Below are positions 1 through 18,674 of a stretch of DNA of 64,000 nt, piece after piece (the first letter of the stretch is position 1; the number at the start of each line of letters is the position of its first letter). The stretch spans positions 1,184-65,183 of the forward strand of contig CAYZCV010000003.1 in the NCBI GenBank assembly GCA_964476965.1, in the 5' to 3' direction. The notes beneath the pieces are model-generated. The model ran no database searches and was not told the DNA's origin. It was given only the letters and a program-made list of their open reading frames with translations. Both the position numbers and the translations under genes were made by a program. This DNA is from an uncultured Opitutus sp. (GTDB taxonomy: Bacteria > Verrucomicrobiota > Verrucomicrobiia > Opitutales > Opitutaceae).

Positions 1-792
1 GCCCAACTCGACGACCTGCGAGTGGGCGTCACCAGCGAGGGCCAGATGGAAGCGCTTTCCCGCGTGGCCGCCGCGACCGGTCGGAAGTTGAATGTCATGC
101 TCGCGGTCGACACCGGCCTGAATCGAGAGGGCGTCCGCTCCGACGAGGCCGCGGGCAAGCTCGCCGCCCGGCTCGCCCAGAGCAGCCACCTCACCCTGCG
201 CGGACTGTACTGTCACGAGGGTCACTTCTACAGCGTCGACCCCGCCACCTTCGCCGCCCAGGCCGAGGCGATGGTCAGTCGGCTCGACCGGGTGCGAAAC
301 GCCATCGATCCCCAGCTGGCGATCTGGCCGGGCTGCAGTGTGACCGCCCGCATCATTGCCGAGCACAGCGCCGGCCGCGTCCAGGCGGTGCGCCCCGGCG
401 CCTACATGTTTGGTGACCTCTCCCTCGCCCGGACCACGGGCGTGATGTCGCCCGCCGATGTCGCGGTCGAGATCCTCGCCACCGTCATCGACCGGCCCGA
501 GCCGGGGCTTGCGCTGATCGATGCCGGCTCGAAGACGTTTTCGTCGGACCGCACGCCGCTCAACCTCTTTGGCGCGGCGGCCGACGGACGGGACATCAAT
601 GTCGTGCGGGTCAACGAGGAGCATGGCTACCTCCGCGGCTCCGAGGTGGACAGCCTCCGGATCGGCGACCGCATCCGCCTCGTGCCCGCCCACGTGTGCA
701 CGGTGATCAATCTCACCGACTCGGTGGTCGTGACCGATGGCGTCCAGGCCGTCGACACCTGGCCGGTCGACGCCCGCGGTCGGACGCAGTAG
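1..792 (+). CDS. PLP-dependent D-serine dehydratase-like / D-threonine aldolase-like enzyme (alanine-racemase fold), C-terminal part; 5' end lies upstream of the window
   Basis: Frame 1 is open from base 1 to the TAG at 790-792; the track ORF 22..792 starts at an internal GTG. C-terminal motifs GAYMFGD, EEHGYL and RLVPAHVCTVINL match my recollection of the DSD1 / D-threonine aldolase family. Not searched. Confidence 0.55.
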   Translation, partial: AQLDDLRVGVTSEGQMEALSRVAAATGRKLNVMLAVDTGLNREGVRSDEAAGKLAARLAQSSHLTLRGLYCHEGHFYSVDPATFAAQAEAMVSRLDRVRNAIDPQLAIWPGCSVTARIIAEHSAGRVQAVRPGAYMFGDLSLARTTGVMSPADVAVEILATVIDRPEPGLALIDAGSKTFSSDRTPLNLFGAAADGRDINVVRVNEEHGYLRGSEVDSLRIGDRIRLVPAHVCTVINLTDSVVVTDGVQAVDTWPVDARGRTQ

Positions 793-931
793 TCCGCCCT
801 CGCACCATGGCCCCCGACTCAAGCCATCCGCGCCAAGCCTGGCCTGCGGAGGGCCGCCTTGGCACCGATCGCCCCTCAAGGAATCCGGCGCCCGCCTCAC
901 CGACGCTGTTCCGCCAGAGATTCTCCCGCCC

Positions 932-2170
932 ATGACCCTCACCTCCGATTCCCCCTCCCGTCGGGCCTGGCTCATGGTGGCCCTGCTCTGGTTCGTCGCG
1001 TTCCTGAACTACCTGGACCGCATGATCCTGATCACCATGCGCAGCTCGATCAAGGAATCGATTCCAATGACCGATGCGCAGTTCGGCCTGCTCACGACCA
1101 TTTTTCTGGTCACCTACGGCCTGCTCAGCCCGCTCGGCGGTTTCGTCGCCGACAAGATGAATCGCAGCAAGATCATCATCTTTTCCCTCTTCGCCTGGTC
1201 GGCGACGACCTGGCTCACCGCGCACGCCGACACCTTTGGCGAACTGCTCTTCTACCGCGCGCTGATGGGCATCAGCGAAGCCTGCTATTTTCCGGCCGCG
1301 GCGGCGCTGCTCATGAACTATCATCGCAACGAGACCCGCTCGCTTGCGAATGGGATCCACCTCAGCGGCGTGATGGTTGGCTCCGGCCTCGGCGGACTCG
1401 GGGGCTGGATTGCGGAGCGGCATGACTGGACCTTCGTCTTCGAGCTTTTCGGGGCGCTCGGCGTGGCCTACGCGGGATTGCTCCTGCTGGTGCTGCGCGA
1501 CCGGCCGGCCGACGCGGTGGAACCCGGCGCGCCGAAGGTGGAGGCCCCGCGCGTGAAGCTCGGCGAGGCCATGATCAGCCTCTTCAGCCGGCCGGCATTC
1601 CTGCTGGCCCTCGCCTTCTGGGGCCTGCTCGGAGTCGCCAGCTGGTCCTTCTCGGGCTGGCTGCCGAGTTTCCTGCAGGAGGAATTCGGGATGAGCCAGG
1701 GCCGCGCCGGCCTCACCGCCCTCGGCTACATCTACTCCGCCAGTCTCATTGGCATGGTGCTCGGCGGCTTCTGGGCCGACCGCTGGAGTCAGTCCAATCC
1801 GCGGGGCCGTATTTACGTCGGCGTCATTGGCGTGCTGGTGGCGGCACCGGGCGTGCTCCTCGTCGGCAACTCCGGCATCCTCATGCTGGTGCTGCTGGGC
1901 ATGATCCTTTACGGCCTGACCCGGCCCTTCCCGGATGCCAGCATGGTTCCCTTGGTTTGCCAGATCGTCGACCCGCGCTACCTCGCGACCGCGGTCGGCG
2001 TGCTCAACATGTTCGCCGTCCTGATCGGCGGCCTGACCATCTACATCGGCGGCGTCCTGCGCGACGCGCAGGTCAACATCTCGCTCGTGTTCAATTTCGG
2101 CGCCTTTGGCCTCGTGGTCTGCGGCGCGCTGCTCTGGCTCGTCCGCCCCAAAAAGTCTCCCTCTGCGTAA
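932..2170 (+). CDS. MFS transporter (organic-anion / sugar-acid permease type)
   Basis: Track ORF 737..2170 trimmed to ATG 932 (MTLTSDSPSRRAWLMVALLWFVAFLNYLDR). The 65 upstream codons are Pro/Arg-rich and look non-coding. About 12 hydrophobic segments; LNYLDR and GGFVADK motifs are typical of MFS_1 permeases. Confidence 0.8.
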   Translation: MTLTSDSPSRRAWLMVALLWFVAFLNYLDRMILITMRSSIKESIPMTDAQFGLLTTIFLVTYGLLSPLGGFVADKMNRSKIIIFSLFAWSATTWLTAHADTFGELLFYRALMGISEACYFPAAAALLMNYHRNETRSLANGIHLSGVMVGSGLGGLGGWIAERHDWTFVFELFGALGVAYAGLLLLVLRDRPADAVEPGAPKVEAPRVKLGEAMISLFSRPAFLLALAFWGLLGVASWSFSGWLPSFLQEEFGMSQGRAGLTALGYIYSASLIGMVLGGFWADRWSQSNPRGRIYVGVIGVLVAAPGVLLVGNSGILMLVLLGMILYGLTRPFPDASMVPLVCQIVDPRYLATAVGVLNMFAVLIGGLTIYIGGVLRDAQVNISLVFNFGAFGLVVCGALLWLVRPKKSPSA

Positions 2171-2174: not shown

Positions 2175-4511
2175 ATGAACTACGTCACCACCCTCAAGCC
2201 CCGCGACCTCCAGCTGGCCGCCGAGGGCCTCGCCGGCTTCCTGCCCGACGAGATCTACGACATCCACGTCCATCCCTACAACGAGCAGCACTTCGCTCCG
2301 GGCGACTGGGCCTTCCTCAAGGGACACCCGATCCTCGGCTGCCGCGAGCACCGCGAGGCCCTGCGGCGCTACATGCCGGCCAAGACGATTCATGGCCTTT
2401 ACTTCGGCATGCCGAAGAAAACGGCCAACCGTCCCGCGATGAATGCCTGGGTCTCCTCCGAGGTGAAGGCCCATGGCACCGCCCTGAGCCGCGCCCTCAT
2501 GGTCGTGTCACCCGCGGACGACCCGGCAACCGTCGCCGCGGCGCTGCGCAGCGGGGAATTCTGCGGGATCAAGGTGTACCACTGCTACGCCAACCGGCCG
2601 GACACGATGAACGCCAGCATCGAGGAGTACGTGCCCGAGTGGATGTGGGAAATCCTCCACGAGGTGCGAGGCGTGCTCCTGCTGCACATCGTGCGCGACG
2701 GCGCGATTGAGGACGCCGGCAACCAGGCGGCCCTCCGACGCCTCTGCCGGGCGTACCCGAACATGCGGCTGATCCTCGCGCATGTCTCGCGCAGCTTCAG
2801 CTACCGCAATGCGCGCCGCGCCCTGCACACGCTGGCCGATCTCGACAATGTCGTGGTCGATACTTCCGCCATCTGCGAGGCCGAGGCTTTCCGCGCCGCC
2901 CTCAAGGTGCTCGGTCCGCGTCGCGTGCTCTGGGGCTCCGACTTCGCGGTGAGCGAGATCTATGGCCGCTGCGTGACCACCGGCAGCCTCTTCTTCTGGC
3001 TGCACCCGGAACTGATCCGGCCCGACTACCTTGCCCCGACCAGCCACGACATGACGCTCGTGGGCATCGAATCTCTCCTCAGCCTGCGCGAGGCTTGCGA
3101 CGACACCGGCCTGACCTCCGGCGACATCCAAGATCTGTTTCACGGCAATGCCCTCCGCCTGCTCGCCCCGCATTTGCCGGCCACCGCGGCGCCAGTCGAA
3201 ACGGCCGGACCCGATCTGTGGCAGCGCGCGCGCACCGTGATCTCCGGCGGCACCGGCCTTCTCTCCAAGCGGGCCGAGATGTTCGACGCCCAGTCGTGGC
3301 CCGCTTATTTCTCCCGCTGCTCCGGCTGCGAGGTGTGGGACCTCTCCGATCGGCGCTACGTTGACTTTGCCGGCGGCGTCGGCGCGATTCTGCTCGGCTA
3401 CGCCGACGCGGACGTCACCTCCGCCGTGCAGCGCCGGCTCACGCTCGGCACCTACTGTTCCCTCGTCAATCCACAGGAGGTCGCCTTGGCCGAACAGCTG
3501 CTCGCGCTCCATCCGTGGGCCGGCAAGGTTCGGTACGCGCGCGGCGGCGGTGATGCCATGGCCATGGGCGTGCGCATTGCCCGCGCCGCCACCGGCCGCT
3601 CTGGCGTGGCATTCTGCGGCTACCACGGCTGGCATGACTGGTACCTTGCGGCCAATCTCGGCGAGAGCGACGCGCTGAACGGACACCTCCTGCCCGGCCT
3701 CGAGCCCAAGGGCGTGCCCCGCGAGCTCAAGGGCACGTCGGTGCCATTCCGCTACAACGACCTTGAGTCGCTGGACGCCGCGCTCGCCAAGCTCGGCGGC
3801 AATCTCGCCGCGGTCGTGATGGAGCCCATGCGCTCCCAGCTGCCCAAGGACGACTTTCTGGCCAAGGTCGCCGCGCGCTGCCGGGCGGCGGGCGGCGTGT
3901 TCGTGGTCGACGAGGTCACCAGCGGCCTGCGCTACGGCTTCCCCGGTGCGATGAGCCGGCTGGGCATCGAGCCCGATCTCGCGGTCTACGCGAAGGCCAT
4001 GAGCAATGGTTTTCCCTTCGGCGCCGTGGTGGGCCGCGACGCCATCATGAAGGAGGCGGACGGCAGCTTCATTTCCTCCAGCTACTGGACCGATGGCGTC
4101 GGCCCCGCCGCCGCGCTCGCGGTGCTGGACAAGATGCGGCGCCTCGGGGTGCACGAGCAGGTGTGGCAGCGCGGCGGCGCGCTGCAGGCCTCGCTGCGCG
4201 CCCTCGCCGCCAGCCACCCCGCCTGCAAGCTCGTTGTCGGCGGCATGCCGGCCACGCCGACCATGACCTTCGACCTCGGACCGGACGCGCCGCTCGCCCA
4301 GGCGCTCTATGTCCGCAAGATGCGCGCGCGGGGCTTCCTCGTCGCAACTTACTACTACGTCATGTTGGCCCACGACGAGGGCCGCATCCGGCAGATGCTC
4401 GACGCCGCCCACACCAGCATGGGCGAGATCGCCGCCATCATCCAATCCGGCCGCCTGGCCGAGGAATCCGGCGTCGCCCGCGGTCTCCGCGGATTTGCCC
4501 GGCTGGCCTGA
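2175..4511 (+). CDS. Fusion protein: N-terminal metal-dependent TIM-barrel amidohydrolase (amidohydrolase_2-like) + C-terminal class-III (glutamate-1-semialdehyde-aminomutase-like) PLP aminotransferase
   Basis: Track ORF 2106..4511 trimmed to ATG 2175 (MNYVTTLKPRDL), 4 nt after the upstream stop. N-terminal half: HVHPY, GIKVYH, LLLHIV, ILAHVS, WGSDF. Linker PATAAPVETAGPD at about nt 3175-3210. C-terminal half: GVGAILLGY, DEVTSGLRYG, YAKAMSNGFPFGAVVG (PLP-lysine context). Confidence 0.75.
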   Translation: MNYVTTLKPRDLQLAAEGLAGFLPDEIYDIHVHPYNEQHFAPGDWAFLKGHPILGCREHREALRRYMPAKTIHGLYFGMPKKTANRPAMNAWVSSEVKAHGTALSRALMVVSPADDPATVAAALRSGEFCGIKVYHCYANRPDTMNASIEEYVPEWMWEILHEVRGVLLLHIVRDGAIEDAGNQAALRRLCRAYPNMRLILAHVSRSFSYRNARRALHTLADLDNVVVDTSAICEAEAFRAALKVLGPRRVLWGSDFAVSEIYGRCVTTGSLFFWLHPELIRPDYLAPTSHDMTLVGIESLLSLREACDDTGLTSGDIQDLFHGNALRLLAPHLPATAAPVETAGPDLWQRARTVISGGTGLLSKRAEMFDAQSWPAYFSRCSGCEVWDLSDRRYVDFAGGVGAILLGYADADVTSAVQRRLTLGTYCSLVNPQEVALAEQLLALHPWAGKVRYARGGGDAMAMGVRIARAATGRSGVAFCGYHGWHDWYLAANLGESDALNGHLLPGLEPKGVPRELKGTSVPFRYNDLESLDAALAKLGGNLAAVVMEPMRSQLPKDDFLAKVAARCRAAGGVFVVDEVTSGLRYGFPGAMSRLGIEPDLAVYAKAMSNGFPFGAVVGRDAIMKEADGSFISSSYWTDGVGPAAALAVLDKMRRLGVHEQVWQRGGALQASLRALAASHPACKLVVGGMPATPTMTFDLGPDAPLAQALYVRKMRARGFLVATYYYVMLAHDEGRIRQMLDAAHTSMGEIAAIIQSGRLAEESGVARGLRGFARLA

Positions 4512-4530: not shown

Positions 4531-5523
4531 ATGAACCCAATTCGCGCCAAATCCTTCGTCACCTCGAGCCGCCGGCGTCTCCAAGCCGTGCCCGACTGGC
4601 CACGGCTACCGGCCTCCATTGTCTTTGATCGCGTGGTCGGCGTCGGCCTCGATTCGCAGCAGCGCATCTACGTCGCCCATCGGGGTGACCATCCCCTGCT
4701 CTGCCTCAATCCCGACGGCACGCTGCATCACGAGATCGGCGCGGAGGTCCTGACCAAGACGACCGCCTACGACCTGCGCGGGCCGGTGCCGATCCCGATC
4801 GCGACCCGCTACTGGCTGCATGGGCTTCATGTGGATCCCTGGGACAATCTCTGGATCACCGACGTGGGCCGTCACCTCGTGATGAAGTTCAATCCCGCCG
4901 GGGAACTCGTGCTCACCCTCGGGATGGACGGCGTCTCCGGCTGCGACGACAAGCTCTTCGGCCAGCCGACCCACGTCTGCGTGGTTCCGACCGGCGAGGT
5001 GTTCATCACCGATGGCTACGGCAACTCGCGGATCGTGAAGCTCGACGCCAGCGGGCGATTCCTCGCTTCCTGGGGTGCGCGCGGCACCGAACCGGGAAAC
5101 TTTCACACACCCCATGTCATCACCCGAGGTGCGGACGGACTGCTCTACATGACCGATCGCGAGAACGACCGGATTCAGGTCTTCAATGAGAGCGGTGCGC
5201 TCCAAGCCGAGTGGCCCGGCCTGCATTCGGTCGACGGCCTCTACGCGGCGCCCGATGGCTCGATCTACGGTTCGGCCGGCATCGACAACGCGGTCATCCG
5301 TTTCTCACCCCGCGGCCGCATTGAGGACGTCTGGGCGGATCCCGGCCAGTTCACCTACCCGCACGGCATCGCCGTCGACGCCAGTGGTGCGGTCTACACC
5401 GCCGAGTCCGGGGATGTCTGGTCCCGCACCGGAGACCTTGCCGGCTCCCACGCCACCCTGCTGCCCCGCGCCGGGGCCGAGGGCAGCGCGCTGCGGAAGT
5501 CCGTGGTGGTCGCGGGGCCCTGA
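4531..5523 (+). CDS. NHL-repeat six-bladed beta-propeller, homologue of peptidyl-alpha-hydroxyglycine alpha-amidating lyase (PAL)
   Basis: Track ORF 4309..5523 trimmed to ATG 4531; the upstream part overlaps the previous gene. Eye alignment to the animal PAL core along the whole length: VAHRGDH, WITDVGRHLVMKF, FGQPTHVCV, ITDGYGNSRIVK, FHTPHVI, MTDRENDRIQVF, YPHGIAVD. Confidence 0.7.
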   Translation: MNPIRAKSFVTSSRRRLQAVPDWPRLPASIVFDRVVGVGLDSQQRIYVAHRGDHPLLCLNPDGTLHHEIGAEVLTKTTAYDLRGPVPIPIATRYWLHGLHVDPWDNLWITDVGRHLVMKFNPAGELVLTLGMDGVSGCDDKLFGQPTHVCVVPTGEVFITDGYGNSRIVKLDASGRFLASWGARGTEPGNFHTPHVITRGADGLLYMTDRENDRIQVFNESGALQAEWPGLHSVDGLYAAPDGSIYGSAGIDNAVIRFSPRGRIEDVWADPGQFTYPHGIAVDASGAVYTAESGDVWSRTGDLAGSHATLLPRAGAEGSALRKSVVVAGP

Positions 5524-5528: not shown

Positions 5529-7382
5529 ATGTCCGCCCCCGCGCGCAGCAATGGCTCCTCCGCCGGCCTCAGCCGCCGGGCCTTCCTCGGCGGCAGCGCC
5601 CTGACGGCCGCCGCGGCCGGACTGGCCGGAACGTCCCGTACGCGCGCCGCCACGGCCACCGTGGGCGAGCCGGGGACGGTCGCCCCGCGACCACTGGCCC
5701 GGCACCGCAATCTCTTCAACGGCGATTGCAATTTCCTCTTCTACAATCCGGAGCTCTGGCAGCCGGAGGGCGGGCCCTACCGCGCCACGGCGATTCATCG
5801 CTTCGTGACGCTGCTCGCGCGCAGCGGCGTCGATACGTTGCTGGTCAATCCCAACACGCAGGTCGCGTGGTACCCGTCGGCGAAGCTTGAGTCCGTCCTG
5901 CGCGGCTACCGGCGCGGCGACCGCGACTACGCCCGGCGAATCGCCGCGGGCAACGCGGGCCTGTCACCCGCGCAGGCCGAGACCTTCATTAACCAGCTGA
6001 TCGGCCTGCTGGACCTTTACCTGGACCTGTCCGAGGCCGGGGTGGACTGGCTCGCCGAATGCGCGGTCGCCTGCCGCCAGCAGGGCATCAGCCCTTGGCT
6101 GAGCTACCGCATGAATGCGACCCACTTCTCGGGCGCGCCGGACAGTCCCGTCAATGGTGTCGTCTTCCGCGATCCCGCCAACCGGCTCTCCGGACGCGTG
6201 CCCGGACCCGGCAACGCCACGCATGCCGGCTGGGTGGGCCTCAACTACGGCCAGCGCGCCGTCCGCGATCACATGCTCGCGCTGATTCGCGAGGGGATCG
6301 AGACGTATGACTACGAAGGCCTCGAGCTCGACTGGCTGCGCCATCCCGTGTGCCTCGAGGCGGGCGCCAGCGCCGGCGCGACCGAGGAAATGACCGAGTG
6401 GTTCGCCGGGATCCGCGCCCTCGCGTCCGCCCGCCGGCCCGGCTACCCCGTCGGCCTGCGGATCCCGTCGAATCTCCCCTACCTCCGCAGCATCGGCATC
6501 GATGTGAAGGCCCTGGTGCGACGCGGCCTCATCGATTTCGTCACGGTGAGCAATTTCTGGCAGACCTCATGGGAAATGCCCCACGACGAGCTCCGGCGCG
6601 AACTCGGCCCGGAGGTCACGATCTACGGCGGGATGGAGGACGCGCCCAACTGGCTCGAGGCCTACGCTCCCGCGCTCACGGTGCGGCCTGAGGGTCCGGA
6701 GATCCAGCTCGCCGGTGACAATGCGCTGAAGACGAGCACGGCCCCCGCGCGCGATCCGGCCATCCGCGGCACGCGCTACCTGACGGCCAGCGCCGAGTTC
6801 ATGCGGGCCAACGCCGCAGGCAAGCTGGTGCTCGGCGCGGATGGATTGGAGCAGTTCAATTTCTTTGTCACCGACCAGGTGCGCGTGCCCGGGCAGCGCG
6901 GCGACTACGCGGCCCTCCGCCAGCTGACCGACCTCGCGTTTCTCCGCGGGAAGGAAAAGCACTACGCCCTCAACACGACCTCGGTGCAGCCGACCAAGCT
7001 GTGGGATGTCCCGGAGCAGTTGCCCGTCAGGATCGCGCCCCGGCACCGTCGCGCGCTCCGGCTGCCGATGTGCGCGGAACCAGCGGACGCCCCGCTGCGC
7101 CTCGTGATCCAGGTCGTGCTCCCCGCGTCGGCCGCGCAACCCGCCCTCGGGGTCAGCCTCAACGGAGCCTGGCCCGGCTTCGCGGCGACGCGGACGCAGC
7201 AACTGCTCTTTCCCTGCGGCCCGTATCGAGATCACGTGGCGGAGCACGCCGCGTGGAATTTCTCCGGCAATCCGCAGGCGATCCGCGAGGGTTGGAATGA
7301 GATCGTCCTCTACAATGAATCAGCGGAGGAGCTGAATGTCATTGCGGTCGAGGTGGGCCTGATCGATCAAGCCCGTCCGTGA
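5529..7382 (+). CDS. Tat-exported protein, putative glycoside-hydrolase-like (beta/alpha)8-barrel; family not recognised
   Basis: Twin-arginine signal (LSRRAFLGGSALTAAAAGLAG...TRAATA). Motifs GLELDWLRHP, GLRIPSN and DFVTVSNFW and an alternating beta/alpha pattern suggest a TIM barrel. Starts 5 nt after the upstream gene. Confidence 0.4.
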   Translation: MSAPARSNGSSAGLSRRAFLGGSALTAAAAGLAGTSRTRAATATVGEPGTVAPRPLARHRNLFNGDCNFLFYNPELWQPEGGPYRATAIHRFVTLLARSGVDTLLVNPNTQVAWYPSAKLESVLRGYRRGDRDYARRIAAGNAGLSPAQAETFINQLIGLLDLYLDLSEAGVDWLAECAVACRQQGISPWLSYRMNATHFSGAPDSPVNGVVFRDPANRLSGRVPGPGNATHAGWVGLNYGQRAVRDHMLALIREGIETYDYEGLELDWLRHPVCLEAGASAGATEEMTEWFAGIRALASARRPGYPVGLRIPSNLPYLRSIGIDVKALVRRGLIDFVTVSNFWQTSWEMPHDELRRELGPEVTIYGGMEDAPNWLEAYAPALTVRPEGPEIQLAGDNALKTSTAPARDPAIRGTRYLTASAEFMRANAAGKLVLGADGLEQFNFFVTDQVRVPGQRGDYAALRQLTDLAFLRGKEKHYALNTTSVQPTKLWDVPEQLPVRIAPRHRRALRLPMCAEPADAPLRLVIQVVLPASAAQPALGVSLNGAWPGFAATRTQQLLFPCGPYRDHVAEHAAWNFSGNPQAIREGWNEIVLYNESAEELNVIAVEVGLIDQARP

Positions 7383-7398: not shown

Positions 7399-8580
7399 AT
7401 GACCTCCACGCTCATCACCCACGCCCGGATCGTCTTCCCCGGCGAGCGCATTGCGTCCGGCGAACTGTTGCTGCAGGACGGCCGCATCGCGGCGATCAAT
7501 CCGGCGCCGGCGGCGATTCCGGCCGGCTGCGTGCGTTTCGATGCGGGCAACCGGCTGCTCACGCCGGGTCTGATCGACCTCCACACCCATGGTATCGGCC
7601 ACAGCCTGTACGAGGCCGGACCCGAGTCGCTCGTCAATGGGCTCGCCTTCGCCCCACGCTTCGGGACGACCGGCATCCTGCCCACGCTCTACCGGGTGAT
7701 GAACCGCGCCTCGTTGCCCCTGCTGGCCGAGCTGTCGCGGGCCCTCGATGGCATCCGCACGGTTTCCGTGCCGGGCTGGCACCTTGAAGGACCCTTCCTG
7801 CGCTTGCCCGGAGCCGGGGCCGACACCATTCCGGGGGATCTGGGGTTGCTGGAGGACATCCTCGCGGCAACGGGTGGACGGACCCGCGCCATGTCGATCA
7901 GCCCGGACACGCCCGGAATCCTGCCCGTGATCGAGCGCCTGCGGGAGCGCGGGATCGTGCCCTTCATCACGCACACGCGCGCCTCGGTTGTGGAGACGGA
8001 GCGGGCCCTCGACGCCGGGGCGCACCACGCCACGCACTTCTACGATGTGTTTCCCCTGCCGGACATCTCCGAGCCCGGGGTGCGACCCTGCGGTGCGGTC
8101 GAGGTGCTGCTGGCCGATCCGCGCGGGACCGTCGACTTCATCGCGGACGGCGTGCACGTCGAGCCCGTGGCGATCCGCGCCGCGCTGGCCGCCAAGGGCT
8201 TTGGGGGCGTGGTGCTGATCACCGACTCGAACATCGGCGCCGGTCTGCCCGACGGGATCTACCCGACGACCTTTGGTTTTCCGGTCAAGGTCTCGGCCAC
8301 CAACGCCGCCCGGATCCACGATCCCGGTCACAAAAACCACGGATCCCTCGCCGGGTCCGCGCTGACCATGAATGTCGGCATCGCCAATCTGCACCGCTGG
8401 CTGAAGCTGCCCTCCGAGCAGATCTGGGCCATGGGCACCGCCAACCCGGCGCGGGTGATGGGCCTGGTCAACAAGGGCGTGATCCGCGTGGGCGCGGACG
8501 CCGACGTGGTGGTCTGGAACGAGGACCTCACGTCGCTCGGCACCTGGGTCGCGGGCGAATCCGTCCATCGCGCCGCCTGA
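7399..8580 (+). CDS. N-acetylglucosamine-6-phosphate deacetylase-like amidohydrolase (NagA family)
   Basis: GLIDLHTHG (metal-binding HxH), HLEGPFL, MSISPD, ITHTRAS and HATHFYDV parallel the NagA motifs I remember (HLEGP, TLAPE, GHTNA, THLYNAM). Confidence 0.65.
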   Translation: MTSTLITHARIVFPGERIASGELLLQDGRIAAINPAPAAIPAGCVRFDAGNRLLTPGLIDLHTHGIGHSLYEAGPESLVNGLAFAPRFGTTGILPTLYRVMNRASLPLLAELSRALDGIRTVSVPGWHLEGPFLRLPGAGADTIPGDLGLLEDILAATGGRTRAMSISPDTPGILPVIERLRERGIVPFITHTRASVVETERALDAGAHHATHFYDVFPLPDISEPGVRPCGAVEVLLADPRGTVDFIADGVHVEPVAIRAALAAKGFGGVVLITDSNIGAGLPDGIYPTTFGFPVKVSATNAARIHDPGHKNHGSLAGSALTMNVGIANLHRWLKLPSEQIWAMGTANPARVMGLVNKGVIRVGADADVVVWNEDLTSLGTWVAGESVHRAA

Positions 8581-8588: not shown

Positions 8589-9977
8589 ATGCTCCTGCCG
8601 ACCAAGACGCGATCGCCTGATCTCTACCCGTACCGGCACGGGTTGTACTTCTCGTTCTTCAACGCGCTCAACTGGCAGGTCGCGATCGGGATCCCGACCG
8701 TGCTCTTCATGCAGGAGCTGGGGGCCGATTCATTCCAGGTCGGGCTCGTGTTCTCGTGGACTTTTCTGCTCACGCCCGCGCAGGTGCTGGCCACGGCCTT
8801 CCTGCCCTACCTCGGCTTCAAGCGCCTCACGCTCGCCGGCTGGAGCGCGCGCGGCTGGTGCCTGGTTGTACCCCTCGGACTGGCCCTGCTGGCCCCGACC
8901 GAGACCCAGCCGTGGATGATCTATGCCGTGGCCGTGGCGATGTTCATCTACAGCCTTGCGCGGGCCACCGGGGCCTCGGCCCTCACCACGTGGCTCTTCC
9001 AGCTGATTCCCTCGAAGATCCAGGGGCAGTACTGGTCGAACGACCAGATCCTCTCCGGCACCGCCGTGATGGGTTCGCTGGCGGTCTATTCGCTGCTCTT
9101 CGCGCTCATCCCGATCTACTGGGCCTTCGTCGTGCAATACTCGGTCGCGATCATCGGTGCGTGGATGGCCTTCCACTATCTGAACAAGCTGCCGGACGTG
9201 GAGAAGCCCAAGATGCTCAGCTTGGAAAAGATCGTCTCGGAGACACCCCGCCTGATCGTCGAGCCCAGCCTCTTTCGCACCTACCTGTGGCTCTCGGTCG
9301 CCCTCTTCTTCACCATCACGCCGATTGCCCCGTTCACCGCGTACTACCTGAAGGCGACGAGTGAAATGACGACCGCGGGCATCATGCTGCTGACCATGCT
9401 CACGTACGTCGGCCTGATCGTGGCCAACGGGTTCATGCGTTCGCACATGGATTCCCACGGGACCAAGCCCTTTTTCAAGCTGTCCTACCTCCTCTTCGCG
9501 CTGATCGCCGCCGGCTGGCTCTTCTTCCTCAATACGGACGGTCGCTGGCTGTTCATGCTGCCCCTGCTCTACTTCCTGCAGGGAGCCGCCTCGGGGTGCT
9601 GGACCTCGGCCAATCTCAACTACCTCGCCAAGATCCTGCCCGAGAAGGACCGCGCCCTGCCGGTGTCGATCCACGGCGCCGTGATCACCTTCCTCGGCGG
9701 CTGCTCACCCGTGCTCTGGGGCCTCTTCCTTAAAGGCACCAGCGGCACGGCGGCGGTGAATGTGCCCGTGCTCCAGATTTTCTTCGGCCTACTGCTCGCG
9801 ACCACGATTGCGCTCTTCTACTTTGTCCGTCGGCTGCCGGAAAAGACCGGACCGGTGGACGCGCTCCTGCAGGGCGGCTGGTTGCTGCGCCCCTTCCGCG
9901 GGGTGGGCAATCTCATCAGCTTCGTCGAGCGCACGCCGCCCAAGCCGGAGAACGCACCTTCGGCCAAGTCGGATTAA
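8589..9977 (+). CDS. MFS-type permease (multi-pass membrane protein)
   Basis: 462 aa with 12 or more hydrophobic segments. Starts 8 nt after the NagA-like gene; last gene of the plus-strand operon. Confidence 0.6.
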   Translation: MLLPTKTRSPDLYPYRHGLYFSFFNALNWQVAIGIPTVLFMQELGADSFQVGLVFSWTFLLTPAQVLATAFLPYLGFKRLTLAGWSARGWCLVVPLGLALLAPTETQPWMIYAVAVAMFIYSLARATGASALTTWLFQLIPSKIQGQYWSNDQILSGTAVMGSLAVYSLLFALIPIYWAFVVQYSVAIIGAWMAFHYLNKLPDVEKPKMLSLEKIVSETPRLIVEPSLFRTYLWLSVALFFTITPIAPFTAYYLKATSEMTTAGIMLLTMLTYVGLIVANGFMRSHMDSHGTKPFFKLSYLLFALIAAGWLFFLNTDGRWLFMLPLLYFLQGAASGCWTSANLNYLAKILPEKDRALPVSIHGAVITFLGGCSPVLWGLFLKGTSGTAAVNVPVLQIFFGLLLATTIALFYFVRRLPEKTGPVDALLQGGWLLRPFRGVGNLISFVERTPPKPENAPSAKSD

Positions 9978-10000: not shown

Positions 10001-11011
10001 TCAGGCGCCCGCCAGCTGGGCCGGCGTGAGTTCGTTCAGGAGCGGGCGGCCATCGGCGAAGCGGTGCAGGTTCTGCGCGAAGATGTCCCACAGACGCTCC
10101 TTGAAGCGCGGACTCAGGCTGGAGCCCGAGATGTGCGGGGTGAAGATCACATTGGGGAAGCGCCAGAGCGGATGCTCCGGCGGCATCGGGTAATGGTAGT
10201 GCGTGTCGAGCGCCGCGCCCGCGATCCAGCCCTCGCGCAGGGCCCGCAGCAGCGCCGCCTCCTGGATGATGGGCCCGCGCGCAGGGTTGAGCACGAAGGC
10301 GTGGCGCGGGAGCGCCTGCAGTTCGCGCTCCCCGACCATGCCCTCGGTGGCCTTGGTCAGGGGAAGCGCGAACACCAGGAAGTCCAGGCCGCTCAGAAAC
10401 GCCCGCTCCTCGCCCGCTCGAAACACCCGGTCTGGCAGCACGCCTTTCGGATCGCCCGTGCCGGGAACCGTGTAGACCTCCTCGCGGGCATCCACGCCCT
10501 TGCGCGTGAGCACATGCACGCGCAGGCCCATCTGCCGGGCCAGCCGTGCGGTTTCCCGGCCGATCCCGCCGTAACCCCACAGGCCGATCGTCGCACCGCG
10601 GATCTCCCGCTGGAAGACGGCGCCCCGATCCCACACCTGCGCGTCCTGGTTGCGCACCATCTGACGCAGGTCGCGCGCGAGATTCACCATCATCGCGATC
10701 ACCCATTCGGCAATCGGCACATCAAAGCAGCCGCGGGCATTCGTCGCGCGGATCCCGCGCTCCGGGAGATTCAGTCCGAACAGCTGCGTGTAGCCCGTCG
10801 ACGCGATCTGGACCCAGCGGACCGCCTTCATCTCCGCAAAATTGGTCGGCGGGAAGGTGCAGAACAGCGCCTCCACCTCCGCCAGATGCGCGCTGGCCAG
10901 CGGCCGGACGGTCTCACCCGGCGGCTGGATGCACTCGATCTCGAACCGGCCGCTGTCCTGTAGCACGGTGAGCGCCACCGGTTCGACCGCCGCGTCAACG
11001 AGGACTTTCAT
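10001..11011 (-). CDS. D-isomer-specific 2-hydroxyacid dehydrogenase, NAD(P)-binding
   Basis: GLWGYGGIGRETARLARQMGLRV Rossmann motif, RGPIIQEAALLRAL...GAALDT and TPHISG are hallmarks of the D-2-hydroxyacid dehydrogenase family. Confidence 0.85.
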   Translation of the reverse strand: MKVLVDAAVEPVALTVLQDSGRFEIECIQPPGETVRPLASAHLAEVEALFCTFPPTNFAEMKAVRWVQIASTGYTQLFGLNLPERGIRATNARGCFDVPIAEWVIAMMVNLARDLRQMVRNQDAQVWDRGAVFQREIRGATIGLWGYGGIGRETARLARQMGLRVHVLTRKGVDAREEVYTVPGTGDPKGVLPDRVFRAGEERAFLSGLDFLVFALPLTKATEGMVGERELQALPRHAFVLNPARGPIIQEAALLRALREGWIAGAALDTHYHYPMPPEHPLWRFPNVIFTPHISGSSLSPRFKERLWDIFAQNLHRFADGRPLLNELTPAQLAGA

Positions 11012-11016
11012 GGGGC

Positions 11017-12231
11017 TCAGTCTGTGAGAATCTTGCCCGGGACACTATTGAATTCGCCCGAGCCCGGCTTGAACGGATAGCGGCGCTTGATCTCGTCAGT
11101 CAGCACCACGCCGAAACCCGGCCGGTCCGGCGGGAACACGTAGCCGTCCTTCATGACCAGCCCACCGTCAATCACCTCCGAGTGCAGCCCCGCATAATCG
11201 GGCGCGATCTCAAGGATGCAGGTGTTGGCACAGGCAAAGCCCGCGTGCACATTCTGCATGAGCGATCCGCCGGCACCCCAGGCATGGGTGGCGATCTTGC
11301 GGCCGCGCTCCTCCATCATCTTCGCGACCGCCATGAACTCGCCGATGCCGCCGGTGAACGACGCATCAGGCTGCCCGATGTCGAACGAATCCTGCGCAGC
11401 GAAGACACGCCACTCATACGTTGCGGTGAGGCACTCGCCACCCGCGATGGGCACGTTGGTCGCCTTGCAGAGCTCGGCATAGCCCCAGGGATCCGTGTAA
11501 TGCAGGGGCTCTTCGAAGAAAAAGAGATCAAAAGGCTCGACCGCCTTGGCGGCGGCAATGGCGATCTCGACCGTCCAGGTCTTGCCCGGACTGTTGCCCA
11601 TGTGACCGTCGAGCATGAGCCACGCATCCTTGCCCGCGTGCGCCCGCATGAAGGCGACCTTGTCCGCCTCGAAGTCAGCCACCTCGGCCACGCCCATCGG
11701 GGTGTACCAACCCTTCTCGGGCGTCCGGCTCCCGGTGGCGACCTTGATGCCGCGGAAGCCGAGCGAGAAATAGTGGTCAATCTTCTGCGCGAGCCGCTCC
11801 TTCGGATAATTGCTGGGACCGCCCGTCGCGTACGCCGGCAGACGCGCATGCTTGGACCCGCCCAGCAGCGCATGGACCGGGAGGCCAAGCAGCTTGCCCT
11901 TCAGATCCCATAGCGCCGCCTCGATCCCATTCAGCACGGACGTCCCCAGACCCACTCGGCACCAGAAATTACCGCACCGGTACATGCGCTGCCAGAGTTC
12001 GGGGATGTCGTCGACCGTCTGCCCGATCAGGATCGGACGAAAGAAATCCACGATCGAGGGCACCACCTCGGGGCAGAAGTAACCCGCATAGGTCTCCCCA
12101 ATTCCAATCAGCGGCCCATCCGTGATGATCTCGATGAAGGCGGCGCTGCGCAGCTTCCGCGCCTCACGGAGGAAGGGGTCATTGGTGCACGGTCCGGTCA
12201 GGAGCGTGGTGCGGACGTCGATGATTTTCAT
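11017..12231 (-). CDS. Enolase-superfamily enzyme (mandelate racemase / muconate lactonizing family; acid-sugar dehydratase or cycloisomerase)
   Basis: IKVATG, LMLDGHMGN, FFFEEP, IAGGE and QPDASFTGGI carry the metal-ligand D/E/E spacing typical of MR-subgroup acid-sugar dehydratases. Confidence 0.85.
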   Translation of the reverse strand: MKIIDVRTTLLTGPCTNDPFLREARKLRSAAFIEIITDGPLIGIGETYAGYFCPEVVPSIVDFFRPILIGQTVDDIPELWQRMYRCGNFWCRVGLGTSVLNGIEAALWDLKGKLLGLPVHALLGGSKHARLPAYATGGPSNYPKERLAQKIDHYFSLGFRGIKVATGSRTPEKGWYTPMGVAEVADFEADKVAFMRAHAGKDAWLMLDGHMGNSPGKTWTVEIAIAAAKAVEPFDLFFFEEPLHYTDPWGYAELCKATNVPIAGGECLTATYEWRVFAAQDSFDIGQPDASFTGGIGEFMAVAKMMEERGRKIATHAWGAGGSLMQNVHAGFACANTCILEIAPDYAGLHSEVIDGGLVMKDGYVFPPDRPGFGVVLTDEIKRRYPFKPGSGEFNSVPGKILTD

Positions 12232-12256
12232 GAATTCGGTTACGGGGTGAAGCGCC

Positions 12257-13009
12257 TCAGTAAACGGCGCGTCCGCCGCTGAGATCGAAGGTGAAGCCGG
12301 TGGTGAAGCTCGTCTCGCGGGACACGATGAACGCCACCATGGCGGCCACCTCGTCGAGGGTCCCGCAGCGCTGCATGGGAATCTTGTCCGTATTCGCCTT
12401 CACCTGCGCCTCCGGCATGGCGTCGACCAGGGGCGTGCGAATCACGGCGGGCGCGAGCGCGTTGATGGTCACGCCGGTGCCGGCGTATTCCTTGCCCTGA
12501 GACTTGGTGAGCCCGATCACCGCGGCCTTGGAACTCGAGTACGCGACCATGCCGGCGTTGCCGTCCTTACCCGCGATCGAGGCCAGGTTGAGGATGCGGC
12601 CATAGCCGCGCGCCAGCATCACCGGGAGAACCGCCTTCGAGAGGATGAAGACGCCCAGCAGGTTCAGGCGCAGCACGCGCTCGAAATCCTCGAGCGGGAC
12701 TTCATGCGACTTGAGATTGGTGCGTCCGGTGATGCCCGCGCTGTTGACGAGGATCTCGATCCCACCCCAGGCCGCCACGATCTCGGCGATCGCTGCGGAT
12801 ACGTCCGCCTCGCGCGTCACATCCACCGCCACACGCCGGTGCGGGGCCGGAAACTCGGACGCGAGCGCGGCGAGCCCCGAGGCATCGAGGTCGAGGATCG
12901 CGACGGTTGCGCCCTCGCTCTTCAGGCGGCGGGCGACCGCCAGGCCGATGCCCGAGCAGCCGCCGGTGATGAGGGCTCGCTGATCCGCGAAACGGGGCGT
13001 TGTTGTCAC
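12257..13009 (-). CDS. Short-chain dehydrogenase/reductase (SDR)
   Basis: ALITGGCSGIGLA (TGxxxGxG), NSAG and YSSSKAA (YxxxK). Confidence 0.9.
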   Translation of the reverse strand: MTTTPRFADQRALITGGCSGIGLAVARRLKSEGATVAILDLDASGLAALASEFPAPHRRVAVDVTREADVSAAIAEIVAAWGGIEILVNSAGITGRTNLKSHEVPLEDFERVLRLNLLGVFILSKAVLPVMLARGYGRILNLASIAGKDGNAGMVAYSSSKAAVIGLTKSQGKEYAGTGVTINALAPAVIRTPLVDAMPEAQVKANTDKIPMQRCGTLDEVAAMVAFIVSRETSFTTGFTFDLSGGRAVY

Positions 13010-13017
13010 GGCGCGAA

Positions 13018-13923
13018 TCAGCGTTGACGCCAGCCGGCCGGGACCGCGGCCTTGAAGCGCTCGAAATCCTCCTCCGAGGCGGACTCGTAGGGGGGCAGCA
13101 GGCGCAGGGGAAAGGTCGGGTCCGACATGCGGAAGAGCATCTTGTCATAGGCTCCGTCGATGTGGAACTTGCCGCCGGCGGCCTTGAGCCCGGCCACCAT
13201 CGCCTTGAAATCCTCGACATCCGCGGCCCGCTGCTCGTCGGTCCCCGCCACGAAAGCCTTGGCCCGGCCGGGGTGAACCGAGGCGAGTGAGATGAGCAAA
13301 CCGAGGTCGTGGGTCTTGCGGGCCATCGCGTAGCCCATTTCGGTGATGTAGAAGCGCAGCCGTGGCTGCAGGCTCATCAGGTCGGCGATCACCGCGGGAT
13401 CGGTGGTGCTGTTCTTCACCGCGATGAAGTTCGGGTGCGCGGCGGCGAGCCGGCGATATTCGACGGACGTCAGCAGGCGCTTGGTCCGCATCAGGTTGTA
13501 ATGGTGAAATTGGCAGTCGGGGAAGCGGCCGCAGGTCTCGGCGAAGAAGCGGTCGACTTCCGCGTCATTCAGTGCACCCCACGACGGCAGGGACAGCTGA
13601 AACAACCGAAAACCCCGTGCGCGGCTGCGCTCGATGCGCTCAATGATCGTCGGCAGGGACAGGGAGATCAGGCCGATCATGGGCGTGGCCTGGGCCTCGC
13701 GCGCACTCTCCCAAAAAGCGCGGGTAATCTGGTCGTACTGGGACTCCGTCACGGCATAGCCCTCGCCGGCGGTGCCGAAGACGTAGATGTGGCGCGTCAG
13801 CTCGCGCGCGATGGTGTGCACCTGGCGGCGAAACACGTCTTCCTGGAATTCAAAGCGCTCGTTCCAGGGAACGACGGCGGTGGCGAGAATGGTGGGCAGG
13901 GCGGAATCAGGCGGGGTCTTCAT
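13018..13923 (-). CDS. Dihydrodipicolinate synthase / N-acetylneuraminate lyase family class-I pyruvate aldolase
   Basis: VFGTAGEGYAVT (GxxGE motif) and FIAVKNST (Schiff-base lysine context). 301 aa. Confidence 0.7.
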   Translation of the reverse strand: MKTPPDSALPTILATAVVPWNERFEFQEDVFRRQVHTIARELTRHIYVFGTAGEGYAVTESQYDQITRAFWESAREAQATPMIGLISLSLPTIIERIERSRARGFRLFQLSLPSWGALNDAEVDRFFAETCGRFPDCQFHHYNLMRTKRLLTSVEYRRLAAAHPNFIAVKNSTTDPAVIADLMSLQPRLRFYITEMGYAMARKTHDLGLLISLASVHPGRAKAFVAGTDEQRAADVEDFKAMVAGLKAAGGKFHIDGAYDKMLFRMSDPTFPLRLLPPYESASEEDFERFKAAVPAGWRQR

Positions 13924-13928
13924 GGCGG

Positions 13929-14663
13929 TCAGGGTTGGAGCTGGGCGGTGATGCGGGACGCCACTTGGGCGGACAGCGCAGCGGAGCCCTCGGGAGTGAA
14001 ATGGACATTGGCCGGCAGCTGCCAGACGGGATGAGTCCGAGCCAGGGCCCAGAGGTCGTCGACCTCGACGCCGGCCTCGCGCATGACGCTGCGCGCCGCG
14101 TCGTTATAGAGGACTTCCTCGCCCTCCACGCGCCCCACGGTACCGGCCGGCACGGGCGTCGTGGTGGCAAAAATGAGGCGGGCCCCGGTGGTCTGGAGCT
14201 GCGTCACGATCTGCCGGAGGTGGTTCGCATACTCGGCCGGCGTGGCCAGCGGGCGATCCCCGGACTTCGGAATCAGATAATTGCCCTGCGCGTCCATGTA
14301 CTTGAGGTCATGCAGGCCGAAATTGAAGTAGATGACGGACCAGGGCCGCTCGCCGAGCCACGTCGGCAGGCGCGCCAGCCCGTACACGGTGGGACCGCAA
14401 TTCTCGGGCGGGCGCTGGACATTGGCGCGTCCGGCGAGCCGCGCCCGAACCTCCCGCGTGTAGGCGATGGAAATCGAGTCTCCGATCAGGAGCACGCGGG
14501 GCAGCCCCGGAACCTCCGCCACCGGCTCCAGCGCCGGGGCCAGCGCTGGAGACAGGGGGTGATGCAGCCCGAGCTTGACGAGGTCGATCTCCGCGCGGGC
14601 CGGAGAGCCGAAGATGGTTCCCAGCACTCCCAGAAGGACCAGCGTGGAACGGCGGGCGGACAT
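13929..14663 (-). CDS. Secreted SGNH/GDSL hydrolase (carbohydrate or sialate O-acetylesterase-like)
   Basis: Signal peptide MSARRSTLVLLGVLGTIFGSPARA. LLIGDSISIAY (GDS block I), FNFGLHD (block III-like) and a C-terminal HFTPEG (DxxH-type block V variant). Confidence 0.7.
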   Translation of the reverse strand: MSARRSTLVLLGVLGTIFGSPARAEIDLVKLGLHHPLSPALAPALEPVAEVPGLPRVLLIGDSISIAYTREVRARLAGRANVQRPPENCGPTVYGLARLPTWLGERPWSVIYFNFGLHDLKYMDAQGNYLIPKSGDRPLATPAEYANHLRQIVTQLQTTGARLIFATTTPVPAGTVGRVEGEEVLYNDAARSVMREAGVEVDDLWALARTHPVWQLPANVHFTPEGSAALSAQVASRITAQLQP

Positions 14664-14676
14664 GAACGAAGTGAAA

Positions 14677-15132
14677 CTAGACCTTCACCTTCACCACCAC
14701 CTTGAGCACCTCAGCGGGGGCACCCCACGCGCAGGACGGAATGTGGGCATCCTCCGGATAGAAAATCGCATACTGGCCCTCGCGCACCTGCACGGGAACG
14801 CCCTCGGGGATCAGCGCAAACAGGGCGGCATCCTTGGACTCGTCGAAGGGCATGGTGACCACCTTCATGAGCGGCAGCGGCGCCCAGTACATGACCTCGC
14901 GTCCGCTCAGCATGAACTGGATGTCGATGTACTTTTTGTGCGCCTCGTACTGGCGCTCCTCGACGGGCTTGGTGGCGTGACGTTGCACGAACGCATAGAC
15001 CTCCTCGCCGTCGATTTCGTAGCGTCCAGGGGCCTTCTGGTCGGTGACGGTGCGAAGGAAGGCGAAGGCCTTGTGGAAACGGGGGGACAAGGCGCTGTAA
15101 CGCGCAGCTTGGTCAAGGGTATCGAGGATCAT
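14677..15132 (-). CDS. YhcH/YjgK/YiaL (DUF386) family protein
   Basis: Track ORF 14677..15243 trimmed to ATG 15132 (MILDTLDQAARY). HKKYIDIQFMLSGRE and the FYPEDAH cupin-like motifs are characteristic. The E. coli member is encoded in the nan regulon. Confidence 0.7.
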   Translation of the reverse strand: MILDTLDQAARYSALSPRFHKAFAFLRTVTDQKAPGRYEIDGEEVYAFVQRHATKPVEERQYEAHKKYIDIQFMLSGREVMYWAPLPLMKVVTMPFDESKDAALFALIPEGVPVQVREGQYAIFYPEDAHIPSCAWGAPAEVLKVVVKVKV

Positions 15133-15321
15133 GAGAAAAGGGTAACGGGCAAAGACACTTCTCGGCGCGGCGGGGCGCAGCGAGAGCGGGTCAGCAGGGC
15201 AAAGCGTCCACGTGCAAGACGGAGGCCGCAGGGACGCGCCCATTGGACCGGGCTTTGGTCCAGGCCGGGGTCAGGCCTGACGACGAAGGAAAAGAGCGAG
15301 GGTTTGGGCGGCGTTGCGCCA

Positions 15322-17639: not shown

Positions 17640-17680
17640 TTGGTTGGCAGGGCTAAGAAAGAGGACCGCTAAGCGGACCA

Positions 17681-17695
17681 CTATTGTATACACTG
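17681..17695 (-). promoter_or_regulatory. Candidate operator of the FadR-type GntR regulator, copy 1 (reads CAGTGTATACAATAG on the minus strand)
   Basis: 15/15 identical to the plus-strand sequence at 18675-18689. Palindromic core TGTATACA. Lies 42-56 bp upstream of the preferred TonB-dependent receptor start. Confidence 0.55.
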
Positions 17696-18658: not shown

Positions 18659-18674
18659 CTCCGGATCGACCTCT

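Follow-up and report, generated by a model that had tools for sequence, protein, structure and literature searches.

Introduction

The locus described here raises the question of what a homologue of the peptide-amidating lyase (PAL; peptidylamidoglycolate lyase, EC 4.3.2.5) of animals is doing in a bacterial catabolic operon. The locus lies in a 64,000-nucleotide stretch of DNA from an uncultured Opitutus sp. (GenBank assembly GCA_964476965.1, contig CAYZCV010000003.1, forward-strand positions 1,184 to 65,183), hereafter the window, and the gene in question occupies window positions 4531 to 5523. PAL uses zinc to split peptidyl-alpha-hydroxyglycine into a peptide amide and glyoxylate. To our knowledge, it has been described only as the latter half of the enzyme that amidates peptides in animals and algae. 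An original prediction, made from the letters of the DNA, held that the gene product matches the PAL catalytic core motif by motif, keeps the His, Tyr and Arg residues of its active site and has no signal peptide, so that a cytoplasmic catabolic role would be plausible. The analysis below shows that the PAL-like protein truly belongs to the PAL family, not to the generic NHL scaffolds, and that its active-site signature is intact. As to its function, the chances are about evenly balanced that it is an accessory zinc lyase that cleaves the C-N bond of a small carbinolamide or carbinolamine intermediate.

Results

Fold of the PAL-like protein and its homology to rat PAL

The open reading frame (ORF) call and its translation place the gene exactly at the position claimed in the original prediction.

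4531 to 5523, plus strand: PAL-family gene encoding a six-bladed NHL beta-propeller of 330 residues, with the ATG at 4531 and the stop codon at 5521-5523

A longer in-frame version from position 4309 was rejected. It runs into the upstream gene, which ends at 4511, and the extension is unsupported because 36 homologues of 325-333 residues begin alike, with a common N-terminal MNPxRA. The only above-threshold Pfam family worth crediting is the NHL repeat (70 bits), and a match to SGL is a one-blade fragment. The protein falls short of membership in the virginiamycin B lyases (Pfam Vgb_lyase, PF24684; 37.2 bits against a cut-off of 50) and in ScyF (NCBIfam NF035926; 78.9 bits against a cut-off of 350). 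The AlphaFold2 model (pLDDT 93.8, pTM 0.92) consists of six four-stranded blades. In a Foldseek search of the PDB, rat PAL (3fvz; TMq 0.75, root-mean-square deviation 3.6 Å, identity 25%) exhibited the highest TM-score, the lowest deviation among whole-propeller matches and the highest identity.

A phmmer search of 177,635 PDB sequences aligned the PAL-like protein with rat PAL in one full-length stretch (query residues 22-299 and 3fvz residues 15-318; E 3.9e-29), and the full-length PAM structure 5wm0 was also matched. Over 275 aligned columns, 33.8% of the residues are identical in the two proteins, and a profile search gave an E value of 6e-43. As judged by sequence comparison, chance cannot explain a full-length match of this strength. 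The full-length six-bladed NHL core of ~300 residues that characterizes the PAL family is found in the alignment, the profile match, the AlphaFold2 model and the Foldseek match. All seven motif pairs named in the original prediction reappear when phmmer aligns the protein with rat PAL (3fvz and 5wm0). Given with the PAL-like protein first and rat PAL second, they are AHRGDH and FHRGDH, WITDVGRHLVMKF and WVTDVALHQVFKL, FGQPTHVCV and FCQPTDVAV, TDGYGNSRIVK and SDGYCNSRIVQ, FHTPHVI and FSVPHSL, TDRENDRIQVF and ADRENGRIQCF, and YPHGIAVD and MPHDIVAS.

The rank of a score does not identify the PAL family. The TRIM-type NHL domains of Thin and TRIM71 score approximately equal to PAL by summed score, and the Thin NHL domain ranks first, but these matches consist of several repeat-sized pieces and are not full length. 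Neither the sequence score nor the fold score separates PAL from TRIM-type NHL domains because the repeats add up. The assignment was decided instead by the full-length alignment and by a residue signature that was compared with a negative control.

Active-site residues and departures from the animal enzyme

The residue equivalences were taken from the phmmer alignment, and six residues of the PAL-like protein could be paired with rat residues because the chain positions of 5wm0 coincide with rat PAM numbering.

4681 to 4683, plus strand: codon of Arg51, equivalent to rat Arg533, in the HRGDH motif; aligned and invariant in the family
4819 to 4821, plus strand: codon of His97, equivalent to rat His585; aligned and invariant
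5017 to 5019, plus strand: codon of Tyr163, equivalent to rat Tyr654; aligned and invariant
5113 to 5115, plus strand: codon of His195, equivalent to rat His690; aligned and invariant
5158 to 5160, plus strand: codon of Arg210, equivalent to rat Arg706; aligned and invariant
5362 to 5364, plus strand: codon of His278, equivalent to rat His786; flanked by Tyr276 (rat Met784) and Gly279 (rat Asp787)

Rat His585, His690 and His786 are the ligands of the catalytic zinc and Tyr654 is the catalytic base; Arg706 binds the substrate carboxylate, with Arg533 as a further substrate-binding arginine. The roles of the zinc triad, the catalytic base and the carboxylate-binding residue were reportedly described by Chufan et al. 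2009 and De et al. 2006. In the bacterial proteins, all six residues are invariant in 36 aligned homologues, and the signature that they form (RHYHRH) occurs in 119 of 120 close homologues and in 118 of 120 members of the wider bacterial family. In one MAFFT alignment, the six residues are found together only in the query clade, rat PAL and one Terriglobia protein (locus L033). None of the ~30 other prokaryotic NHL proteins in that alignment (22-33% identity), which provide the negative control, carries all six. The three zinc-type histidines (H97, H195 and H278) are thus identified at the sequence level, and the catalytic-type tyrosine and the substrate-type arginines (Y163, R210 and R51) are aligned and invariant. 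The expectation that the His, Tyr and Arg positions are kept is therefore borne out in the alignments, and generic NHL proteins lack the set of six. With the full-length match and this signature, a reading of the protein as a generic NHL propeller fails. The human residue Arg703, which is equivalent to rat Arg706, lies in the active site and contributes to the binding of the substrate (PMC10303134).

The protein departs from animal PAL outside this set. Rat Cys634, Cys655, Cys702 and Cys713 align with Gly, Gly, Tyr and Val, and the four disulfide-forming cysteines are lost. The rat calcium ligand Asp787 is replaced by Gly279, with Ala or Gly across the clade, and the position of rat Met784 is occupied by an invariant tyrosine (Y276). 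Neither the structural calcium site with Asp787 nor the two disulfides of the animal enzyme are therefore present; both belong to the animal protein as a secreted enzyme and are not part of the chemistry of catalysis. Three positions, including Y276, are invariant in the clade of the window protein.

5104 to 5106, plus strand: codon of His192; clade-invariant
5224 to 5226, plus strand: codon of His232; clade-invariant
5356 to 5358, plus strand: codon of Tyr276; clade-invariant

These positions are variable in the wider family, and rat PAL contains Ser, a gap and Met there. According to a DSSP assignment of the AlphaFold2 model, H192, H232 and Y276 are located one to two residues ahead of the first strand of blades 4, 5 and 6, respectively. 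In the model, they would lie on the face of the propeller that carries the His triad, and they may reshape the peptide-holding pocket of PAL or form a fourth metal ligand or a substrate pocket.

Cellular location

The PAL-like protein lacks an N-terminal hydrophobic segment, and its residues 16-19 form a confidently modelled propeller strand. In a simple hydrophobic-window test of N-termini, a signal-like N-terminus was found in none of the 113 full-length members of the clade. Applied to 116 members of the wider bacterial family, the same test found one in 66 when the threshold was strict and in 92 when it was relaxed, and twin-arginine motifs occur in 14. Exported examples include two proteins of the wider family (P0153 and P0152) and the Terriglobia protein of L033, which has a twin-arginine translocation (Tat)-type leader. 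The lack of a signal peptide, combined with the loss of the four PAL cysteines and of the calcium-binding aspartate, leads us to predict that the window protein is cytoplasmic and that its clade branched off, with this location, from a family whose members are mostly exported. Animal PAL is marked by a secretory location and by its pairing with a peptidylglycine alpha-hydroxylating monooxygenase (PHM); the window protein lacks the signal peptide, and no such partner is encoded among the ORFs scanned. The original prediction was right that there is no signal peptide, and the cytoplasmic catabolic role that it considered plausible agrees with the location of the gene within a catabolic operon. 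Its remark that such a location is unusual for the fold was too broad, since a cytoplasmic location is unusual for PAL relatives and not for NHL folds generally.

Family, distribution and existing annotation

Close relatives of the window protein (58-95% identity) are found only in Opitutaceae and Lacunisphaera genomes, and the closest (95%) is from a metagenome-assembled genome labelled Opitutus sp. GAS368. The wider family that bears the signature contains at least 3236 proteins at E <= 1e-20. Its members are ~300 residues in size and 26-50% identical to the window's clade (~41% on average), and the mean identity to rat PAL is 37% for the wider family and 34% for the clade.

The NCBI already applies the PAL-family name to three proteins that are 65-67% identical to the window protein (P0033, P0052 and P0086), of which P0086 is the orthologue from Opitutus sp. 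GAS368 (LT629735.1). The same NCBI name, or "peptidylamidoglycolate lyase" in the annotation of the Joint Genome Institute (JGI), is attached to relatives in Terriglobales, Bryobacteraceae and Gemmataceae, and other pipelines name the same proteins streptogramin lyase, YncE or sugar lactonase. The homology is known at the annotation level, and the gene is an uncharacterized member of a known family. The original prediction overstated the novelty because the family name has already been applied to this clade.

A search of a representative library was dominated by giant multi-NHL proteins, and it also revealed fusion proteins. In metagenomes, the PAL-like domain is fused to a NANM-type propeller (P0165), to an alpha/beta hydrolase (P0152), to GH62 and to CBM9. 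The PAL-like domain of P0165 has an identity of 49%, and its partner is a propeller of the Kelch/NANM mutarotase type. The full catalytic signature was checked by name in P0165 and P0152. These fusions, as read from their domain sequences, link the family to carbohydrate processing. The fusions to a GH62 domain or to CBM9 modules are those of the metagenome proteins P0315 and P0370.

Operon and surrounding island

The PAL-like gene is the fourth gene of a tight plus-strand operon. The other members are as follows.

22 to 792, plus strand: pyridoxal phosphate (PLP) enzyme resembling D-threonine aldolase and D-serine dehydratase (DSD1-like), from Pfam and synteny; 5' end cut by the window edge
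737 to 2170, plus strand: major facilitator superfamily (MFS) transporter, from Pfam and synteny
2175 to 4511, plus strand: fusion of an Amidohydro_2 (AH2) domain and a class-III aminotransferase, from Pfam and the nearest PDB aminotransferases; 19 nucleotides upstream of the PAL-like gene
5529 to 7382, plus strand: GH156 exosialidase homologue of 617 residues, from a phmmer match to 6rzd (E 2.8e-28)
7399 to 8580, plus strand: NagA-like N-acetyl-amino-sugar deacetylase (Amidohydro_1), with 166 bits to TIGR00221, below its cut-off of 225
8589 to 9977, plus strand: second MFS transporter, at the operon end, from Pfam and synteny

The DSD1-like identity of the truncated first gene is supported by the PDB relatives of its full-length orthologue in L034. 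The gene of the GH156-like protein starts 5 nucleotides past the PAL-like stop codon and is present in approximately half of the related loci. Its product contains a twin-arginine signal (SRRAFLGG) and has no Pfam or NCBIfam match; an exported enzyme is thus encoded amid genes whose other products are cytoplasmic. A PDB sequence search with the AH2 domain returned no match, and a fold search with its predicted structure yielded only generic decarboxylase and lactonase matches (TM-score ~0.55). No characterized sugar dehydrogenase stands out as a specific near relative of the short-chain dehydrogenase/reductase (SDR) in the core operon. A beta-hydroxyaspartate cycle was rejected as the pathway, given that the aldolase-like protein reaches 138 bits, where the cut-off for BhcC is 690.

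The operon is met by a convergent cluster and is followed by a larger island.

10001 to 15243, minus strand: convergent sugar-acid cluster, from profile searches; conserved beside the operon in L001, L013, L032 and L034
26049 to 27014, minus strand: Kelch/NANM-like propeller of the island
26962 to 28044, minus strand: FMN-dependent hydroxyacid oxidase of the island
29210 to 31486, minus strand: NagB-like and PIG-L fusion of the island
32396 to 33337, minus strand: strong match to dihydrodipicolinate synthase (DHDPS), in the island

The convergent cluster encodes a D-2-hydroxyacid dehydrogenase, an MR/MLE sugar-acid dehydratase, an SDR and a DHDPS-like protein, followed by a GDSL esterase and a YhcH/DUF386 protein that is nearest to N-acetylneuraminate anomerase. 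The island (15429-34511) additionally contains a TonB-dependent receptor, GntR/FCD regulators, three GFO/IDH/MocA oxidoreductases and an HpcH/HpaI aldolase. Because GH156-like, NagA-like, YhcH-like, NANM-like, DHDPS and NagB-PIG-L genes occur together, the region is, on predicted gene functions, a utilization island for a sialic-acid-type amino sugar and not a peptide-hormone pathway. A 430-residue ORF with high third-position GC (19824-21116, plus strand) is located between two GFO/IDH/MocA genes and just misses the cut-off for DUF455 (34.2 bits; cut-off 34.3).

Genes for a hydroxylase or a peptide substrate were sought in all larger ORFs between 1 and 28 kb and in ten larger ORFs beyond 28 kb. 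Among these ORFs, there is no copper monooxygenase, 2-oxoglutarate dioxygenase, other hydroxylase or precursor-peptide gene, and the window contains no DAO or PhyH homologue. Nothing in the neighbourhood indicates alpha-hydroxyglycine peptides, and no hydroxylase gene adjoins the PAL-like gene in the window. Farther along the window are a PcRGLX-like three-domain protein (46227-49085, minus strand; E ~1e-174), a gamma-glutamyltranspeptidase (55054-56679, plus strand), an FAD-linked oxidase fused to a 4Fe-4S domain (56713-59745, plus strand) and an Amidohydro_3 protein (59778-61679, minus strand).

Conservation of the neighbourhood

Synteny was counted in the 30 Opitutaceae loci with enough upstream sequence. 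The AH2-aminotransferase gene precedes the PAL-like gene in 27 of them and is its most constant neighbour; of the other three, one has a standalone AH2 gene directly upstream (L026), one has the PLP enzyme gene adjacent (L028) and one has a transporter gene (L031). The conserved order begins with a gene of the IclR family and continues with AH2, SDR, PLP enzyme, MFS transporter, AH2-aminotransferase, an optional DAO gene and the PAL-like gene. The PAL-like gene is followed by an optional gene for a GH156-like or another unknown protein, an optional NagA-like gene and an MFS transporter. The DAO gene, which encodes an FAD enzyme resembling sarcosine and glycine oxidases, separates the AH2-aminotransferase and PAL-like genes in 3 of the 27 loci (L012, L016 and L034). 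It follows the PAL-like gene in L027, and in L069 it stands beside the aminotransferase gene with the PAL-like gene absent. An oxidase and PAL pair as a general analogue of PHM and PAL was set aside, given that the DAO gene is adjacent in four loci only, accompanies the aminotransferase where the PAL-like gene is absent (L069) and, like PhyH, is missing from the window.

In the Terriglobia locus L033, a Tat-exported PAL-like gene is located among two BNR sialidase-like genes and an alpha/beta hydrolase gene, and PhyH dioxygenase, GFO/IDH/MocA oxidoreductase, DHDPS and PIG-L genes are also present. The AH2 protein of L033 is 36% identical to the AH2 domain of the window (E ~4e-59), and the co-occurrence of AH2 and PAL-like genes is, by sequence similarity, found in a second phylum. 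The PhyH-type 2-oxoglutarate dioxygenase of L033 is encoded at 12113-12901 on the plus strand, two genes downstream of the PAL-like gene. By analogy, PhyH and the PAL-like protein of this locus could be a hydroxylase and lyase pair comparable to PHM and PAL.

Orthologues of AH2 (41-63%) and of the aminotransferase (49-65%) occur without a PAL-like gene in three loci from other lineages (L069-L071). These are sialidase/DHDPS/NANM/SASA loci in which the two halves of the fusion are neighbouring genes. We read the AH2 and aminotransferase pair as a core module of an uncharacterized branch of sialic-acid or amino-sugar-acid catabolism, to which the PAL-like protein would be an accessory in Opitutaceae.

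Discussion

A proposed accessory C-N lyase for a small molecule

PAL chemistry requires a carbon that bears a hydroxyl, a carboxylate and a nitrogen. By analogy with the animal enzyme, the substrate would be an alpha-hydroxy, alpha-N-substituted carboxylate whose hydroxyl is bound by a zinc ion held by H97, H195 and H278, and R210, together with R51, would hold the substrate carboxylate. Y163 would take the hydroxyl proton, and the C-alpha-N bond would break to yield a 2-oxo acid (glyoxylate or larger) and an amide or amine. We infer the zinc binding, the lyase chemistry and the class of substrate from an observed homology, residue set and fold, and from a protein without a signal peptide in a conserved neighbourhood. 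The substrate is probably not a peptide. It would more likely be a small carbinolamide or carbinolamine that arises in the breakdown of a sialic-acid-type amino sugar acid, on which the PAL-like enzyme would act together with the upstream Amidohydro_2/aminotransferase protein.

Candidate substrates include the cyclic carbinolamine of de-N-acetylated neuraminic acid; a carbinolamide formed from a 2-acetamido-aldonate via oxidation, or via dehydration and then hydration; and a carbinolamine left by the PLP dehydratase or the DAO oxidase. The PAL reaction is spontaneous above neutral pH (PMC6529398), and related loci run the module without a PAL-like gene; the protein would therefore be an accessory accelerator of a slow spontaneous step. 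In the GlcNAc1A (Ong) pathway, the RidA protein OngD offers a parallel for a carbinolamine-clearing role, and the treatment of an oxidized amino sugar "akin to D-amino acid catabolism" in that pathway is a precedent (PMC9537276). A more specific proposal is that the PAL-like protein and the AH2-aminotransferase protein belong to a route not yet described, in which amino sugar acids derived from sialic acid lose their (N-acetyl)amino group via a carbinolamide or cyclic carbinolamine; it is tentative and on balance unlikely. If it is true, PAL chemistry serves small-molecule metabolism in bacteria and may be the source from which animals recruited their peptide-amidating enzyme.

Several observations weigh against the accessory C-N lyase. 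No oxidase or hydroxylase gene beside the PAL-like gene in the window could make the alpha-hydroxylated carbon, the DAO gene is adjacent in only four related loci, and PhyH is found only in L033. Three distant family members are located in unrelated neighbourhoods with no common theme, and the context is not transferable across the family for this reason. Since the AH2 fold search gave no specific function, the pathway step is not pinned down. The calcium ligand Asp787 is replaced in the whole clade, and the clade-invariant H192, H232 and Y276 near the metal site might alter the metal site or the chemistry. A full-text literature search found no experimental study of any bacterial PAL-family member.

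Alternative functions

The alternative that survives best is that the protein acts on the anomeric C2 of a sialic-acid-type sugar with an oxygen leaving group, as a ring-opener, an anomerase or an anhydro-sugar lyase. The metagenome protein in which a PAL-like domain is joined to a mutarotase propeller of the NANM type and the presence of the gene in sialic-acid-type loci of two phyla are consistent with this function, and the chemistry would be analogous in that C2 is also an alpha-hydroxy carboxylate. However, a NANM-like protein and a YhcH-like anomerase are already encoded in the island, and the tightest linkage of the gene is to the aminotransferase fusion and points to nitrogen chemistry. 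We regard this alternative as improbable.

A beta-propeller sugar lactonase or another hydrolase, which would open a lactone made by a dehydrogenase of a sugar-acid pathway, is a rather improbable explanation as well. The neighbourhood contains the SDR dehydrogenases, MR/MLE dehydratase and aldolases typical of oxidative sugar pathways, JGI names homologues "sugar lactone lactonase YvrE", and Pfam reports a weak SGL match (PF08450; 28.6 bits against a cut-off of 26.3). That match covers a single blade (residues 98-128, profile positions 188-218), and no stretch of it is significant individually. Propeller lactonases have a calcium site of Glu/Asn/Asn/Asp (PMC13578688), but the invariant residues of the clade are the PAL set. 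With a partial SGL match and a PAL-type residue set, the protein does not belong to the SMP-30/gluconolactonase/LRE-like lactonases. Moreover, the operon already encodes Amidohydro_2 proteins, whose family includes sugar lactonases.

An analogue of ureidoglycolate lyase in purine or allantoin breakdown is very unlikely. Ureidoglycolate would be an alpha-hydroxyglycine carbinolamide with the exact PAL pharmacophore, and the nearby Amidohydro_1 gene has weak partial matches to allantoinase models. This gene product, however, matches NagA over its full length and far better than allantoinase, the operon was found to contain no allantoate or ureidoglycine enzymes, and the context is sugar-related. 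Genuine peptide amidation, with C-terminal amides formed on bacterial peptides, would account for the complete PAL catalytic set, but is highly implausible for a cytoplasmic protein of a catabolic operon with transporters and sugar enzymes, in which the Met784 pocket residue has become an invariant tyrosine and the scanned ORFs include none of the hydroxylase and precursor-peptide genes that were sought. A non-catalytic NHL scaffold or binding protein, to which the summed scores of the TRIM-type domains could point, is scarcely credible; those matches are repeat-wise, and catalysis is favoured because the six residues are invariant in two bacterial families and absent from generic NHL proteins.

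Significance

Thousands of bacterial proteins keep the full PAL catalytic set. The clade of the window protein is a tractable case among them, with a cytoplasmic protein, a conserved operon partner and a sialic-acid-type amino-sugar island, and a sequenced isolate, Opitutus sp. GAS368, has the same operon. The new information is the conserved gene context, which makes the substrate question experimentally approachable. Once its substrate is identified, a bacterial PAL-family protein would for the first time have a function, and a new step of amino-sugar breakdown could come to light. The protein is also a possible soluble, disulfide-free lyase for peptide amidation in vitro. Were it a lactonase or inactive, the finding would be an ordinary one.

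Comparison with known systems

Rat PAL and the window protein share a six-bladed NHL propeller of the same length with ~34% identity over the core, the zinc His, Tyr and Arg residues and the motifs HRGDH, DGYxNSRI, DRENxRIQ and PHG. Unlike rat PAL, the window protein is predicted to be cytoplasmic, has no PHM partner and is encoded in a sugar or amino-sugar catabolic operon. It has also lost the disulfide cysteines, contains Gly or Ala for Asp787 and Tyr for Met784, and has the extra invariant residues H192 and H232. The wider bacterial family has the same six-residue signature and a similar size, but differs from the window's clade in that its members mostly carry Sec or Tat signals, vary at positions 192, 232 and 276 and occupy heterogeneous neighbourhoods.

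The accessory enzymes of sialic acid metabolism provide a second comparison. The Kelch mutarotase NanM and the anomerase YhcH/NanQ, both of which have homologues in the island, speed up a spontaneous rearrangement of an alpha-hydroxy carboxylate. They belong to other folds and families, have no His3-zinc site and perform oxygen rather than nitrogen chemistry, and any functional parallel to the PAL-like protein would be one of analogy. MdgL, a hemiaminal lyase reported in 2025, acts after the dioxygenase MdgH when methylguanidine is demethylated, and its authors cited PAL as the only comparable enzyme known to them (PMC12508155). It differs from the PAL-like protein in its substrate, in having no sequence homology to PAL (PMC12508155) and in always occurring with a hydroxylase, which the window lacks. 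In parallel to the function proposed for the PAL-like protein, MdgL is an enzyme that bacteria devote to making a hydroxylated C-N intermediate collapse faster (PMC12508155).

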